Source: a virus
DNA length: 64,000 nt
Reading direction: 5' to 3' (one strand)
Virus record (IMG/VR): IMGVR_UViG_3300023179_003528
Coordinates: 12,455 to 76,454 of that record
The notes below the pieces were generated by a model that made no database searches, was not told where the DNA came from, and saw only the letters and a program-made list of their open reading frames with translations. Within the stretch, counting starts at the first letter, position 1, and every line of letters starts with the position of its first letter. This document shows, piece by piece, positions 3-63,676 of the stretch. The translations under genes were made by a program, and so were the position numbers.

Positions 3-188
3 AAATGTGTGCCAGTAGGTGAAGATTCCTATATTGAAAGTCTAATGAATCAATTATACGAAAAGGCTCCCCAAGGTTGGGAAGGCACTGTTAAGGCAAT
101 GAAAAAGCACAAGGAAATAGATAATCCATATGCACTAACGAATTGGATGAAGAATAAAGGTTATAAAAGTCATAAAGCAAAAAAGTAA
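3..188 (+). CDS. 3' end of a gene truncated by the window edge; probable processed head/internal protein
   Basis: Frame 3 is open from 3 to TAA 186-188 (KCVPVGEDSYIESLMNQLYEKAPQGWEGTVKAMKKHKEIDNPYALTNWMKNKGYKSHKAKK). It has V/L-x-E motifs (VGE, LYE) like T4-type prohead protease sites. Confidence 0.7.
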   Translation, partial: KCVPVGEDSYIESLMNQLYEKAPQGWEGTVKAMKKHKEIDNPYALTNWMKNKGYKSHKAKK

Positions 189-244
189 GTGAGCAGGAGC
201 CTCTAGCGCCAATTGATCCTACGGATAATACTCAGGCTCCTGCT
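179..244 (+). other. -1 programmed ribosomal frameshift signal (A_AAA_AAG heptamer plus downstream stem-loop)
   Basis: A AAA AAG at 179-185 lies directly before the stop. After a 6-nt spacer there is a perfect 11-bp stem, AGCAGGAGCCT (192-202) / AGGCTCCTGCT (234-244). Confidence 0.75.
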
Positions 245-427
245 AGTAATAAAATAGTTAGGTTACCAAAACTCCGTCCGGACATGCCTCTTGACTATTG
301 GGATGCTAGATTCCAACAGGCAGATCCAAATCGCTACCATCAATTTAAGAATAAAACACCAGAAAAGAAAAGTCAAATGGCTGTAGCTGCTCTAAAACAG
401 GCTAGAGAGAAGCCAAGAAAAGTTTGA
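179..427 (+). CDS. -1 frame extension (~80 aa) of the upstream gene
   Basis: Frame 2 is open from 176 to TGA 425-427 (KKVSEQEPLAPIDPTDNTQAPASNKIVRLPKLRPDMPLDYWDARFQQADPNRYHQFKNKTPEKKSQMAVAALKQAREKPRKV), with no start codon near its 5' end. Confidence 0.65.
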   Translation, partial: KKVSEQEPLAPIDPTDNTQAPASNKIVRLPKLRPDMPLDYWDARFQQADPNRYHQFKNKTPEKKSQMAVAALKQAREKPRKV

Positions 428-452
428 CATTATTAATTTAAGATTGTATCAT
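424..452 (+). promoter_or_regulatory. sigma70-type early promoter
   Basis: TTGACA 424-429, 17-bp spacer, TATCAT 447-452; AAGGAG RBS follows. Confidence 0.75.
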
Positions 453-53609: not shown

Positions 53610-54119
53610 ATGAAAATCTCTGATGTAATCTCTGAAAACACCGAAACTATTAGTGAATTAGGAACTACTCCTATGGGTTTAGGTCAACGTATGGCTACAG
53701 GAGCTCTGGCGAAACTAGGATCAACCACGGCTCAGGCTAATCTAGATGTAGGAAAAAGAGCTAACGAACTAGAAAAAACTTTTAGACAATGGGCATTGAG
53801 AGCAGGGATTAGTTTAAACATGGCACCTAAAACTGAGTTAGAAAAGTTTTTTCAACAGCAAGGATTACCTTCAATGCCGTTAAGACAGAACATGTATGAT
53901 CTTACAGATCCAAATACATCTAGAGAAGTTTGGAAAGCAGTTGCTCAGAATGCCTATAAGAGTGGAGGTTCAACTGCTGCATCTGCTCCATTAGGACAAA
54001 AATATGGATTAGGTTCTGGATCAAGTAGCAGTAGCGGACAAAATGTTCTGGCTCAAATACAGGGCATGTTGGGCAGCTTGACACCAGCAGAGAGAAACAA
54101 ACTTAAGGCTGCTCTCTAA
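53610..54119 (+). CDS. hypothetical late protein, possibly a processed head protein
   Basis: TAAATA at 53576-53581, GAGGA RBS, N-terminal ISE motifs (MKISDVISENTETISE). Confidence 0.65.
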   Translation: MKISDVISENTETISELGTTPMGLGQRMATGALAKLGSTTAQANLDVGKRANELEKTFRQWALRAGISLNMAPKTELEKFFQQQGLPSMPLRQNMYDLTDPNTSREVWKAVAQNAYKSGGSTAASAPLGQKYGLGSGSSSSSGQNVLAQIQGMLGSLTPAERNKLKAAL

Positions 54120-54334
54120 AAGAAAGGAAGACCACTCTGTTTTGTGGTTTCTAGATTTTCAGCTATAAGTTCTGCAATTATTTCTCTATCGTTAATATCT
54201 AACTGATACATCTGATCCATTGTAAGCGATCCCCGCATAAACCAAGCTAATTTAAATAATTCTTTTTTTAAGGCTTTTGACTCGTTATCTAATTTAACAA
54301 TTTCTTTTTCTATTTGTTCATTAGATAAGGTCAA
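54116..54334 (-). CDS. gp51-like hub/tail assembly chaperone segment, probably expressed by -1 frameshift from the upstream gene
   Basis: L.W.MRG.LT....Y.L...DREII pattern; only a TTG start with no RBS; in the -1 frame of the upstream T_TTT_TTC. Confidence 0.6.
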   Translation of the reverse strand: MTLSNEQIEKEIVKLDNESKALKKELFKLAWFMRGSLTMDQMYQLDINDREIIAELIAENLETTKQSGLPFF

Positions 54335-54339
54335 AAGCC

Positions 54340-55209
54340 TTAGGCGAAAAAATCTGAATCGTTAAAATTAATAGGCATTTCATAGGTCGCAGGAGCACCT
54401 TTAAGTTGTTGTTCTTCTGTTGTGGTAAAAGACAAAGGCTTTAGATCATTATGTTTCTTTAATTCGGCTAGGTGTTTCTGTATTTGGTCAAATATAGACT
54501 TGTCTACATTATCGATAAATTCTCGTAGTGTGTTTCTATCAGATACTTCTGCTTCCATGGTCACAATCTTTTCTATGCTGTCTACCATGAGGTCTGTGGT
54601 TATCTGTGTCATTGTTCTAAAACTTTGATTTACATAGGCCAATTTCTTTTCGTCACTCATAGCATCATCATTTACTACCTGAAGAATCTTTTGTGTTTCG
54701 AAAGTCTTTATGCTCAGCTGAGTCATGTGTTTGTAGGTCAATGGCCTAACAAACACCACTATATTTTCATTGATGACAACTTGATCTATCCAATAGTTTT
54801 GACTCTGTTGATCTAATAATAGTTTTAGATCTATTTCATATTCAACCTCTTCATCGGTATTCGGCACCTTGTGTGTGAAAGGCATACGTTCTCCATAGGT
54901 AGCTAACCTTATGGCCACCAAGATTGTATCTAGGTCTATAGTAGGACATTTCCAAGCGTCCTTAATGTTGGGCAAACAACTCTGAATAACGTCTACGACA
55001 CCTTGACCATTCATTAGAGCATCTGGTGTTTTAAACATAAGCTCATCTCGGGCTGTCATAGAATACACGGGCAACTCATCATTATCTGGCATGAATATAC
55101 TACCTGCTGGCCAAAATTTACCATTACTGGGTAATCTAATATAAATTTTTGGCTGACGCATCCATGCTGCCAATGGGTTGGTCTTGGTTGAAGGGGTGAA
55201 ATGTTGCAT
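54340..55209 (-). CDS. gp26: baseplate hub assembly protein (gp26-like)
   Basis: LPS.G, MTARDEL, DLDTILVAIR.AT.GE, RPLTY and C-terminal DFF. Confidence 0.7.
   Translation of the reverse strand: MQHFTPSTKTNPLAAWMRQPKIYIRLPSNGKFWPAGSIFMPDNDELPVYSMTARDELMFKTPDALMNGQGVVDVIQSCLPNIKDAWKCPTIDLDTILVAIRLATYGERMPFTHKVPNTDEEVEYEIDLKLLLDQQSQNYWIDQVVINENIVVFVRPLTYKHMTQLSIKTFETQKILQVVNDDAMSDEKKLAYVNQSFRTMTQITTDLMVDSIEKIVTMEAEVSDRNTLREFIDNVDKSIFDQIQKHLAELKKHNDLKPLSFTTTEEQQLKGAPATYEMPINFNDSDFFA
54346..54352 (-). other. -1 frameshift heptamer T_TTT_TTC
   Basis: 0 frame: GAT TTT TTC GCC TAA. -1 frame: TTT TTT CGC CTA AGG CTT TTG ACC TTA, continuing into 54334..54116. Confidence 0.6.
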
Positions 55210-57595: not shown

Positions 57596-59305
57596 ATGAG
57601 TTGGCGTAAATATTTTACTCCCGTTAATACTTCCGGTAGTTTGAGTCCTATCAGCGGCTCAATGATCAGTTCTGGGCCAAGTGCCAGCAGATCCAACTAT
57701 TCCAGCTATCTACCAGATGTTTATTCAGGTCATCCTAATCGTCTCGAACGGTATGGTCAATATGACACCATGGACTGGGACAGTGAAGTTAATGCTGCTC
57801 TTGATATTCTAGCAGAGTTTTGCAGTCAAGAAAATGTAGAAAACGGAACTCCATTTCAAGTTTTTTTCAAAGAGTCTGCCACAGGTACTGAAATTAGAAT
57901 TATTAAAAAGTATCTGCAACAATGGACTAAGTTAAACAAGTTTCATACTAGAATGTTTAAAATAGTGCGTAATGCCTTCAAATACGGAGATGTTTTCTTT
58001 ATTCGCGATCCTGAAACTCAGTCTTGGATGTATGTAGATCCTGCCAAAGTAGATAAGATTATTGTAAATGAATCAGAAGGAAAAAAACCTGAACAATATG
58101 TTATCAGAGATTGGAATCCTAACTTAGAAAAATTAAACGCCACAGCCATTAATCCTAGCAATGTGCATGGCGGCGGTAGTCAATTTGGTGGCAGCTACGG
58201 AACAGGACAAGGTGGAGCAGGAGGAGCCAGAGGTATGGTAGGATCCTTTCCTACATCCACTAATGCCAGCAGGTTTACACAAAACCAAAATCAATATACC
58301 TTAAATGCTGAACATGTTATTCATATATCTATGAGTGAAGGATTAGACAATAACTATCCTTTTGGCAACAGTCTTTTAGAAAGTATTTTTAAGGTATTCA
58401 AACAAAAAGAATTACTAGAAGACGCGATTATCATATATCGTGTTCAACGTGCTCCAGAACGTCGTGTGTTCTATATTGATGTGGGTAACATGCCCAGTCA
58501 CTTGGCAATGGCATTCGTTGAACGTGTAAAAAATGAAGTAAACCAAAGACGTATACCAAGTAGCACAGGTGGATCACAAACAGTCATTGATTCGGGCTAT
58601 AATCCACTATCAATAAATGAAGACTATTTTTTCCCACAAACAGCAGAGGGGCGAGGCAGTAAGGTTGAAATATTACCAGGTGGAACTAATCTAGGAGAAA
58701 TTGATGACCTTAAGTACTTTACTAATAAACTTTTTCGTGCTCTACGCATCCCTAGTAGCTATCTACCTACTGGCCCCGATGACGGGGGAAGTAATTTTAA
58801 TGATGGAAGGGTCGGAACCGCTTATATTCAGGAACTTAGATTTAACAAATATTGTGAAAGATTACAATCCCTAATGCATGAAGTATTTGATACAGAATTT
58901 AAATTATACCTATACAAAAAAGGTATTAACATAGATAATAATATCTTTGATATCAAGTTTAATCCTCCGCAAAATTTTGCCAGCTACAGGCAGGCTGAGA
59001 TGGACACTGCTCGTGTTAATACATTTGGCACACTGGCAGAAGTTCCATACCTTAGCAAGAGGTTCTCCATGAAACGCTTCCTAGGCCTAACCGCTGAAGA
59101 AGTAGCAGAAAATGAGCGTATGTGGAAGGAAGAAAACATCGATGATGACGAAGATTTAAGCGCTGGTGCTCAGATGCGTGGGGGCGGTATTAGTGCTAAT
59201 GCTATAGGTTCAGAACTAGGATCTGCCACTGCCAACACTGCGGAATTGCCCGATGAACAAGGTCAAATGCCTGAAACTCCGCCCACGGAGCAACCTCAAG
59301 TTTGA
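57596..59305 (+). CDS. gp20: portal protein
   Basis: LLEDAIIIYRVQRAPERRVFYIDVGNMP, EDYFFP...GRGS and ELRF.K motifs. Confidence 0.96.
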   Translation: MSWRKYFTPVNTSGSLSPISGSMISSGPSASRSNYSSYLPDVYSGHPNRLERYGQYDTMDWDSEVNAALDILAEFCSQENVENGTPFQVFFKESATGTEIRIIKKYLQQWTKLNKFHTRMFKIVRNAFKYGDVFFIRDPETQSWMYVDPAKVDKIIVNESEGKKPEQYVIRDWNPNLEKLNATAINPSNVHGGGSQFGGSYGTGQGGAGGARGMVGSFPTSTNASRFTQNQNQYTLNAEHVIHISMSEGLDNNYPFGNSLLESIFKVFKQKELLEDAIIIYRVQRAPERRVFYIDVGNMPSHLAMAFVERVKNEVNQRRIPSSTGGSQTVIDSGYNPLSINEDYFFPQTAEGRGSKVEILPGGTNLGEIDDLKYFTNKLFRALRIPSSYLPTGPDDGGSNFNDGRVGTAYIQELRFNKYCERLQSLMHEVFDTEFKLYLYKKGINIDNNIFDIKFNPPQNFASYRQAEMDTARVNTFGTLAEVPYLSKRFSMKRFLGLTAEEVAENERMWKEENIDDDEDLSAGAQMRGGGISANAIGSELGSATANTAELPDEQGQMPETPPTEQPQV

Positions 59306-60730: not shown

Positions 60731-60742
60731 TAGAGATAATTG

Positions 60743-61372
60743 ATGAAACTGGCCTATCTTCGTGAACATCTAAGTTTTGATCAGGCTCAAGCTGTGCTTG
60801 AGTCTGATGACAAGGATGGCAAAAGCCTTTATCTAAAAGGCATAGCGATTCAAGGAGGTATACGCAATGCCAACCAGAGAGTTTATCCTGTTGATGAAAT
60901 TGAACGTGCAGTTAAAACACTTAACGACCAGATTCAAAACGGATATTCTGTTCTAGGCGAAGTTGATCATCCTGATGATTTAAAAGTTAATTTGGACCGC
61001 GTATCACATATGATTACTCAGATGTGGATGGAGGGTCCGAACGGATATGGAAAGATGAAAATCCTTCCAACTCCAATGGGTAACTTAGTTCGTACCATGC
61101 TGGAAAGCGGTGTAAAACTTGGTGTAAGTTCTCGTGGTAGCGGCAATGTTAACGACATGAACGGCCATGTGTCTGATTTCGAGATTATCACGGTAGATGT
61201 AGTTGCTCAACCAAGTGCGCCCGGTGCGTATCCTACTCCTGTTTATGAACATCTCATGAATTCACGTAATGGATATCGTACTATAAAGGTAGCACAAGAA
61301 GTAAAAGAAGATCCAAAGGCCCAGAAATATTTGAAAGAATCACTTCTTACAATTATAAAAGGTCTAAAATAA
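60743..61372 (+). CDS. gp21: prohead protease
   Basis: NANQRVYP, LGEVDHP, VSH, GVSSRGSG and DVVAQPSAPGA motifs. Confidence 0.95.
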   Translation: MKLAYLREHLSFDQAQAVLESDDKDGKSLYLKGIAIQGGIRNANQRVYPVDEIERAVKTLNDQIQNGYSVLGEVDHPDDLKVNLDRVSHMITQMWMEGPNGYGKMKILPTPMGNLVRTMLESGVKLGVSSRGSGNVNDMNGHVSDFEIITVDVVAQPSAPGAYPTPVYEHLMNSRNGYRTIKVAQEVKEDPKAQKYLKESLLTIIKGLK

Positions 61373-62494: not shown

Positions 62495-63676
62495 ATGTCA
62501 CAACTATTAAATGAAAGATGGTCAGAGACCAAAGAAGCTCTGCTTGAAGGCCTATCTGGTAACCGTCGTGCATCTATGGGCGTATGCTTAGAAAATACAC
62601 GTAAGTACTTGGCTGAAAGCGCAACAGCTGGGGCAACCAGCGCTGGTAATATTGCCACATTAAATCGCGTAATTTTACCGGTTATCCGTCGTGTTATGCC
62701 CACAGTTATTGCTAACGAAATCATTGGCGTTCAGCCAATGACAGGACCTGTTGCCCAGATCCACACGCTACGTGTTCGTTATGCAGACAGTGGTGATAAT
62801 GTAGTTGCAGGTGAAGAGGCACTTAGCCCATTCAAGATTGCTGCTGCTTATTCTGGAAATAATGTTGACAGCGCACCTAAGGCGCAGACAACTGCAAACT
62901 TAGAAGGTCAACCAGGTAAGCGTATGAGCATTCAGATCTTAAAGACACCAGTAGAAGCTAAGAGCCGCAAGCTATCAGCTCGCTGGACCTTTGAGGCTGC
63001 TCAAGATGCGCAAGCACAACAGGGTATTGACATTGAGGCAGAAATCATGGCTGCTTTAGCTCAAGAAATAACAGCTGAAATTGACCAAGAAATTCTAGCT
63101 TCTCTACGTAGTTTAGCCAGTGTAGAAGAAACATATGACCAGTCATTAGTTTCGGGAACTGCTACATTTGTTGGTGACGAACATGCTGCTCTGGCAATTC
63201 AAATCAACCGTGTTAGTAACTTGATTGCTCAGCGTACACGTCGTGGCGCTGGTAATTGGGCAGTTGTCAGTAACCAGGCTCTAACAATTCTACAGAGCGC
63301 AACAACTAGTGCATTTGCTCGCACCACAGAAGGCACATTTGAAGCTCCCACAAACACCAAGTTTGTTGGGACATTGAATGGCGCAATGCGTGTCTATGTA
63401 GATGCATACATGGCTGACACAACAGCACAGAATGACAACCAAATTCTTGTTGGTTATAAGGGTTCAAGCGAAGCTGACGCTGCTGCTTTCTACTGCCCCT
63501 ATATTCCTCTTATGAGTTCTGGTGTTGTTCTAGACCCGGCAACATTTGAGCCAGTAGTTGGCTTCTTAACACGTTACGGCTATGTTGAGTTAACAAACAC
63601 AGCATCTAGCTTAGGTAACGCTGCTGACTATCTAGGTAAAGTTTCTATTACTACAGCTAACGTTAGCTTCAAGTAA
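62495..63676 (+). CDS. gp23: major capsid protein
   Basis: RRVMP..IA..I.GVQPMTGP, AKSRKL.A.WT.E.AQD, EI..EID.E, GYKG.SE.DA..FYCPY.PL and TRYG motifs. Confidence 0.96.
   Translation: MSQLLNERWSETKEALLEGLSGNRRASMGVCLENTRKYLAESATAGATSAGNIATLNRVILPVIRRVMPTVIANEIIGVQPMTGPVAQIHTLRVRYADSGDNVVAGEEALSPFKIAAAYSGNNVDSAPKAQTTANLEGQPGKRMSIQILKTPVEAKSRKLSARWTFEAAQDAQAQQGIDIEAEIMAALAQEITAEIDQEILASLRSLASVEETYDQSLVSGTATFVGDEHAALAIQINRVSNLIAQRTRRGAGNWAVVSNQALTILQSATTSAFARTTEGTFEAPTNTKFVGTLNGAMRVYVDAYMADTTAQNDNQILVGYKGSSEADAAAFYCPYIPLMSSGVVLDPATFEPVVGFLTRYGYVELTNTASSLGNAADYLGKVSITTANVSFK

Follow-up and report, generated by a model that had tools for sequence, protein, structure and literature searches.

A programmed -1 ribosomal frameshift at the end of a gene encoding a 670-aa phage protein is the best explanation for the arrangement described here, and the comparison of related viral sequences makes this explanation very probable. 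The window that we analyzed (64,000 nucleotides, bases 12455-76454 of the source record) belongs to a 76.5-kb viral contig in IMG/VR, which represents an uncultured giant phage from a lake (freshwater) and has a CheckV completeness of about 20%. The gene is modular; it starts 1.8 kb before the window and was read from the whole contig (G000:C1:10630-12642, identical to L002:10630-12642), and its 3' end, the last 61 codons and the TAA stop codon, occupies positions 1-188 of the plus strand. According to the proposed mechanism, ribosomes on this gene would arrive at the last two sense codons, AAA AAG, where a hairpin located 6 nt downstream would resist unwinding, and in a fraction of the ribosomes the two Lys-tRNAs would move back by one base and pair with AAA AAA. 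Non-slipping ribosomes would terminate at the adjacent TAA, yielding the 670-aa form, and those that slip would translate 80 more codons, yielding a 750-aa form with a flexible linker and a helical C-terminal domain. The occurrence of slipping and its rate are what we infer from the sequence pattern; the frameshift would presumably set how much C-terminal domain is made per protein body and, in some relatives, how much of the further modules.

The heptamer, the 6-nt gap and the 11-bp stem that the initial annotation had claimed are all present at the end of the gene. The slippery heptamer A_AAA_AAG (179-185, plus strand) is in the X_XXY_YYZ phase, with the zero frame reading GCA AAA AAG (177-185), and is directly followed by the zero-frame stop codon TAA (186-188), which terminates the short form. 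A spacer of 6 nt (186-191) separates the heptamer from a hairpin (192-244) that is the candidate stimulator; its arm 192-202 is the exact reverse complement of 234-244, which gives 11 base pairs and a loop of 31 nt. The inner ATCC/GGAT hairpin that had also been claimed (216-219/223-226) does fold in the window but is not conserved among relatives. The folding energy of the hairpin is -21.4 kcal/mol, compared to a mean of -6.0 (sd 2.7) for 2000 synonymous recodings in which the extension peptide was kept and the phage's own codon usage was applied; since this corresponds to z -5.7 and only 1/2000 recodings was as stable, the stem is not a mere consequence of the encoded peptide. The excess over plain dinucleotide shuffles was modest (z -1.8, 11/200), and a search of positions 100-500 against Rfam (E-value up to 1) gave no match to a frameshift element.

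It should be noted that the AGGAG in the 5' arm was considered as a ribosome-binding site and rejected: there is no start codon downstream, and many of the related cassettes described below have AGGAA instead. Readthrough of the TAA codon was rejected as well, as the zero frame meets a TAG after five more codons and readthrough would add five residues only.

The -1 frame opens at position 176, after a TAA codon at 173-175, and runs to the TGA at 425-427; the first ATG, GTG or TTG in it is the ATG at 284. The claim of a -1 frame of about 80 codons that lacks an early start is thus borne out: the extension (185-427, plus strand) has 80 codons (185-424) followed by the TGA, and is reached via the shift only. 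The transframe product would be 750 aa long, with the junction ...HKAKK-VSEQEPL.... Extension residues 1-29 (185-271) form a linker rich in Pro, Ala, Glu and Gln, which starts V-S-E and also encodes the hairpin, and residues 30-80 (272-424) form a conserved C-terminal domain with the motif D-x-W...F-Q-x-A-D-P-N-x-Y-H-Q-F-K-N-K-T-P-E-K-K. If the frameshift operates, the 47 codons that gene callers annotate as an ORF starting at the internal ATG (284-427, plus strand) are an artefact. The unit ends at a sigma-70-like promoter of the next gene (TTGACA-17-TATCAT, 424-452, plus strand, 11/12 matches), the -35 hexamer of which overlaps the TGA, and the open frame fills the space up to this promoter, as had been proposed; no plus-strand terminator was found between the end of the 670-aa gene and the promoter-like site. 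In the -1 frame of the long genes of this phage, stop codons occur with a frequency of 0.107 per codon; therefore, 84 open codons have a probability of about 1e-4. The combination of an open -1 frame and a stable hairpin is unlikely to arise by chance. Elsewhere in the long ORFs of the window, AAAAAAG is found in phase at three sites, and the -1 frames there extend for merely 4-18 codons.

In E. coli, no heptamer is more prone to shifting than A_AAA_AAG, at which the dnaX frameshift takes place. A high rate of shifting at this heptamer depends on a host in which a single tRNA-Lys(UUU) decodes AAA as well as AAG, which applies to about half of bacteria (PMC5009743). No tRNA was found in a scan of the window.

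A protein-level search of viral contigs with the 80-residue extension detected 41 loci with 53-92% identity, many of which align from residue 1. Relative to a long upstream ORF, the extension lies in the -1 frame at 28 of these 41 loci, and all 28 have the heptamer followed by TAA; a search with the 670-aa protein detected 2 further frameshift loci. An exact DNA pattern (six A, a purine, TAA, a purine, any base, and GAGCAGGA) produced 64 matches at 48 unique sites. True cassettes, in which a zero-frame ORF of up to 962 codons precedes the site and the -1 frame encodes the domain, account for 30 distinct cases, and the other 18 of the 48 sites were rejected as chance matches within ordinary reading frames. 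The heptamer, the adjacent stop codon and the hairpin are common to the 30 distinct cassettes, consistent with the dnaX/IS3-type signal that had been claimed, and the heptamer is kept in all of them: the six A's are fixed and the seventh base is either G or A. The invariant columns of an 18-sequence DNA alignment are the six A's, the TAA and GAGCAGGA, and the flanks before the heptamer and after the 5' arm vary. At least six unrelated upstream module endings abut one and the same cassette (...KSHKAKK, ...AWKAKNKAKK, ...FESLRAKVEELAKK, ...LIAALESKK, ...LPEKKPKK and ...LEEQTKK), and in 23/23 aligned relatives each of the two Lys codons of the -1 frame is AAA.

All 30 cassettes have an uninterrupted helix of 7-12 bp that starts 5 or 6 nt after the heptamer, with loops of 15-33 nt that are unrelated in sequence. 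Covariation of the stem was observed in part. There are two compensatory changes, G-C to A-U in a cassette with a perfect 12-bp stem (L086) and C-G to G-C in another (L104), and a single G-U change (L120), all of them beyond stem positions 2-7; on the other hand, positions 2-7 are invariant, and therefore uninformative about covariation, and an A-C mismatch occurs at stem position 9 in ten cassettes. Conservation of the arms may be partly driven by the peptide, as they encode E-Q-E-P and P-A. Constraint at the nucleotide level is apparent from codon choice. The string AAA AAA GTA AGT GAG CAG is essentially invariant, i.e., synonymous sites are frozen in extension codons 1-6 and the 5' arm. For example, Gln is encoded by CAG in 22/22 cases in the frozen region and by CAA in the domain (18:1 and 21:1), where conserved Lys, Glu, Pro and Ala codons vary freely. 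Likewise, between the window and its nearest relative (L022), synonymous differences are found at 4.5 of 19 sites in the linker and 23 of 30 sites in the domain. Reduced synonymous variability is known to mark -1 frameshift sites (PMC4066793). An upstream Shine-Dalgarno-like stimulator is not conserved among the cassettes; GAGG located 7 nt upstream is found only in the group ending '...EELAKK' and is absent from the window.

The substitution pattern further indicates that the extension is under purifying selection as a coding sequence. The comparison of the domain between the window and L022 gave 23 synonymous and 4 nonsynonymous differences (dN 0.03, far below dS), and the pooled pN/pS is 0.32. 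An AlphaFold2 model based on the 41-sequence alignment predicts that linker residues 1-18 are disordered (pLDDT <50) and that residues 31-70 form a small helical domain (pLDDT 87-93), with helices at 36-44 and 59-75. A Foldseek search of the model against the PDB gave no match with an E-value <7, and the ESM Atlas gave no feature match, the extension being present there only from residue 34, as the ORF starting at ATG 284. One idea considered for the C-terminal domain is that it may resemble a scaffold-type, coat-binding helix-turn-helix.

The same domain is also found without a frameshift. It is in frame with a long upstream ORF in 13 of the 41 loci; in L054 and L057, the upstream module is the window's own '...NPYALTNWMKNKGYKSHKK' / '...GWEGTVKAMKKHKEIDNPYALTNWMKNKGYKSHKK', after which come, in the same frame, a short helix-like linker and the domain. 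When 1.84 billion cluster representatives were searched with a profile, 242 proteins were detected, 127 of them with an E-value <1e-10. Among the best 150 of the 242, about 120 are proteins of 110-1139 aa with the domain at the very C-terminus, and about ten start at profile position 31, corresponding to the truncated ORFs that gene callers predict from the internal Met. Most homologues have the 45-residue helical domain fused in frame at the extreme C-terminus; because most representatives end with the domain in frame, the distribution suggests that C-terminal fusion is the ancestral and commonest state and that the -1 cassette is the route of one sublineage to the domain. The claim of a short and a long isoform is strongly supported by comparison, namely by the conserved cassettes, the selected extension and the in-frame fused homologues.

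Transcriptional slippage is the first of the alternatives to programmed frameshifting that have to be considered. RNA polymerase could add one A within the A-run, and standard translation would then produce the same 750-aa protein; the protein products of the two processes are identical, and slippage is known to occur at runs of nine A (PMC5009743). One variant fits this description: L049 (1849-2028) has nine A's followed by G and then TAA, lacks the GAGCAGG hairpin and the Pro/Ala linker, and its -1 frame enters the domain almost at once (KKVSERQLEP...). Slippage may replace or add to ribosomal slipping in this variant. In all 30 cassettes, however, the A-run is only six or seven nucleotides long, and slippage would not need the hairpin, which is conserved at frameshift spacing together with the frozen synonymous sites. 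We consider slippage an improbable explanation for the family.

It is slightly less probable still that the domain belongs to an independent small gene and is made alone, either from ATG 284 (47 aa) or from an ATG upstream in the -1 frame, with the heptamer being incidental. Gene callers do report the ORF starting at 284. Furthermore, the -1 frame of P0002 and P0096 contains an ATG located 8-9 codons ahead of the heptamer: their upstream module ends ...AWKAKNK..., the ATG is derived from A+TGG of the Ala-Trp codons, and an ORF of 83-87 aa starting ME[GS]... is reported, so that a separate start is possible in phages of this type. Against this alternative, no Shine-Dalgarno sequence precedes position 284, the internal Met (window ATG 284) is missing in the L005 and L046-L048 types, residues 1-33 upstream of the Met are conserved in frame, and a TAA located one codon ahead of the heptamer blocks the -1 frame of the window. 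For most cassettes an independent start can be excluded, since only 1-3 codons of the frame are open ahead of the heptamer and some types lack the internal Met; moreover, a small gene would leave the invariant heptamer, stop codon and stem, as well as the fused homologues, unexplained. Finally, no recoding would be needed if a gene that used to be in frame had suffered a dead frameshift mutation or had been misassembled; the existence of in-frame homologues and the homopolymer at the site suggest this, but it is highly improbable given that the arrangement recurs in 30 distinct cassettes, that the extension is under purifying selection with nucleotide-level constraint over the site and the stem, and that assemblies from three studies agree: their contigs cover 1-680 or 74-207, differ by 0-1 substitutions and are free of indels at the A-run, which also excludes the homopolymer error envisaged in the initial annotation.

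Programmed frameshifting remains the preferred explanation, and the gene in which it would operate is of a class for which no such site had been annotated. The window contains a T4-like gene set, including the portal (57596-59305), a prohead protease of the T4 gp21 type (Peptidase_S77; 60740-61372, plus strand; 93 bits to PF03420; phrog_207) and the major head protein (62495-63676; phrog_138), along with a baseplate hub-lysozyme, tail genes and a family-B DNA polymerase. The 670-aa gene is located in a cluster of genes without assigned function that adjoins replication genes. Comparison of the 670-aa protein and its extension to Pfam and PHROGs revealed no Pfam family and only marginal PHROG matches, and its homologues, all annotated as 'hypothetical' (248/248), are mosaic and match only module by module. 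A megablast search of the phage collection with the first 3.5 kb gave no match, and neither did tblastn of the extension against the 50,697 records of this collection, in which no cultured phage carries the extension. The sole match of the 670-aa protein in the collection is a module of 60-90 residues in a hypothetical protein that the Synechococcus phages S-SM2 and S-SCSM2R encode between g16 and g17. In S-SM2 (L063:4698-6824), the module, which corresponds to residues 98-159 of the 670-aa protein (...AWQQSKITKAADYL...), is part of a 708-aa mosaic hypothetical protein encoded between g16 and g17, the terminase genes of T4-like cyanophages.

The initial annotation described the 670-aa product as a probable head protein. 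In the sense of the major head protein this has to be discarded, as that protein is encoded by the gene at 62495-63676, and no capsid family in Pfam or PHROGs matched the 670-aa protein. It is plausible, judging from indirect signs, that the protein is instead a capsid-targeted cargo processed by the gp21-type protease that the phage encodes. Proteases of T4-type and related giant phages cut after Glu, and T4 internal proteins bear a targeting leader (PMC5694885, PMC9958956). In this family, a conserved N-terminal leader ending Y-I/V-L-E is found in 13/14 relatives, and [V/I/L/M]-x-E precedes the C-terminal domain in 19/19 aligned frameshift and in-frame versions: [V/I]-x-E follows the shift in all cassettes (V-S-E in the window), and [V/L/M]-x-E is found in the in-frame relatives. 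This conserved motif fits a predicted protease site; it should be noted that the V-S-E codons also carry the zero-frame stop codon and the spacer. Hydrophobic-x-Glu motifs are not enriched in the 670-aa protein (8 observed versus 7.4 expected). Repeated QGVAEG linkers connect swappable modules in relatives, and none are found in the window's own protein. In a complete 221-kb phage (L018), the shared '...GWEGTVKAMK...NPYALTNWMKNKGY' module ends a 155-aa protein that is encoded two genes past the protease gene, where other small genes have leaders of a similar kind.

Short amphipathic leaders that end in Glu were also observed in neighboring genes. Upstream of the window (L002:5669-10637), the leaders MKIQELLQEAE and MRAKEFLSE resemble the T4 capsid-targeting sequence, as do MKPIKLKGLIKE and MIRLKDLLKE beside the protease gene of L018 (1128-4148).

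In three relatives, L024 (2995-3864), L028 (2995-3396) and L086 (minus strand), the -1 frame continues past the domain, for 133-289 residues in total, and the extra modules are joined by ...NENFVAE... or ...ENFADGK...; the frameshift in these phages would give access to extra modules that are candidate cargo. A different observation concerns more abundant related phages in the same lake samples, the contigs of which match only the core of about 25 nt and diverge exactly at 177 and 201. This divergence fits the core being a recombination joint or an assembly-graph junction.

A broader interpretation, which we advance tentatively and regard as rather unlikely as a whole, is that protease-processed head-cargo polyproteins use the cassette as a portable dosing valve. 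The protein would be cut at V-S-E, the frameshift rate would fix the number of capsid copies of a small basic C-terminal peptide per body (and of further modules in L024, L028 and L086), and the invariant 25-nt core would double as a recombination joint for upstream modules. If the protein is a gp21-cut head cargo, the site would show by what means large aquatic phages control the relative amounts of the proteins that they package.

The window contains a second candidate frameshift. A gp26-like baseplate-hub gene (phrog_150; 54116-55209, minus strand) ends GAT TTT TTC GCC TAA, with the heptamer at plus-strand positions 54346-54352, and its -1 frame extends for 78 codons through a 72-aa ORF (54116-54334). 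The T_TTT_TTC heptamer is kept at the end of the baseplate-hub gene (N/D-F-F) in 10 distinct related viral loci, in which the -1 frame contains the downstream ORF and opens only 9-20 codons earlier. Because the gene adjoins a tape-measure-like gene, this may be a G/GT-like chaperone frameshift of T4-like phages.

The cassette appears to be a well-supported new case of a known type of recoding, in a class of phage genes without a previously annotated site. Both here and in dozens of public contigs, automated gene callers annotate the unit as two pieces, a 670-aa gene and an orphan ORF of 47 aa. The family also provides natural controls, as it includes versions with the domain in frame, frameshift versions with A6G or A7, and one version with A9G that lacks the hairpin.

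Several known systems share parts of this arrangement. T4 internal proteins IPI-III and Alt combine a capsid-targeting sequence with processing by gp21; the phage described here encodes a gp21-family protease, and the protein family has a conserved leader ending V/I-L-E and a hydrophobic-x-Glu before the C-terminal domain. The T4 internal proteins are single, small and not frameshifted, unlike the 670/750-aa pair. In retroviral Gag-Pol, a frameshift doses the distal part of a protease-cut polyprotein (PMC5009743), and the phage cassette would be an analogue only if the cargo interpretation holds. The T7 10A/10B, Lactobacillus phage A2 gp5A/5B and lambda gpG/gpGT pairs likewise depend on a -1 shift near the 3' end of a gene, which generates two products with a common N-terminal body in a set ratio (PMC5009743, PMC10885494); the 670-aa gene differs from these in being neither a major head protein nor a tail chaperone gene, and its gene family is new.

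The slippery site itself has its counterparts in bacterial genes. In the IS3 family (IS911, IS3), the orfA-orfB frameshift likewise uses A_AAA_AAG or A_AAA_AAA near the end of the upstream frame, followed by a downstream structure and accompanied by reduced synonymous variability (PMC4066793). The phage gene is not a transposase gene, however; its stimulator would be a plain hairpin, not a pseudoknot or a three-way junction, and its extension is a short terminal domain, not a catalytic one. The E. coli dnaX gene (tau/gamma) likewise has A_AAA_AAG with a simple stem-loop a few nt downstream, whereas the phage cassette lacks a conserved upstream Shine-Dalgarno stimulator and the protein is unrelated. 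A reversed dnaX layout has been predicted in some bacteria, e.g., Chlorobium, in which the zero-frame stop codon directly follows the site and the long product needs the shift (PMC5009743), as is the case for the phage gene described here.
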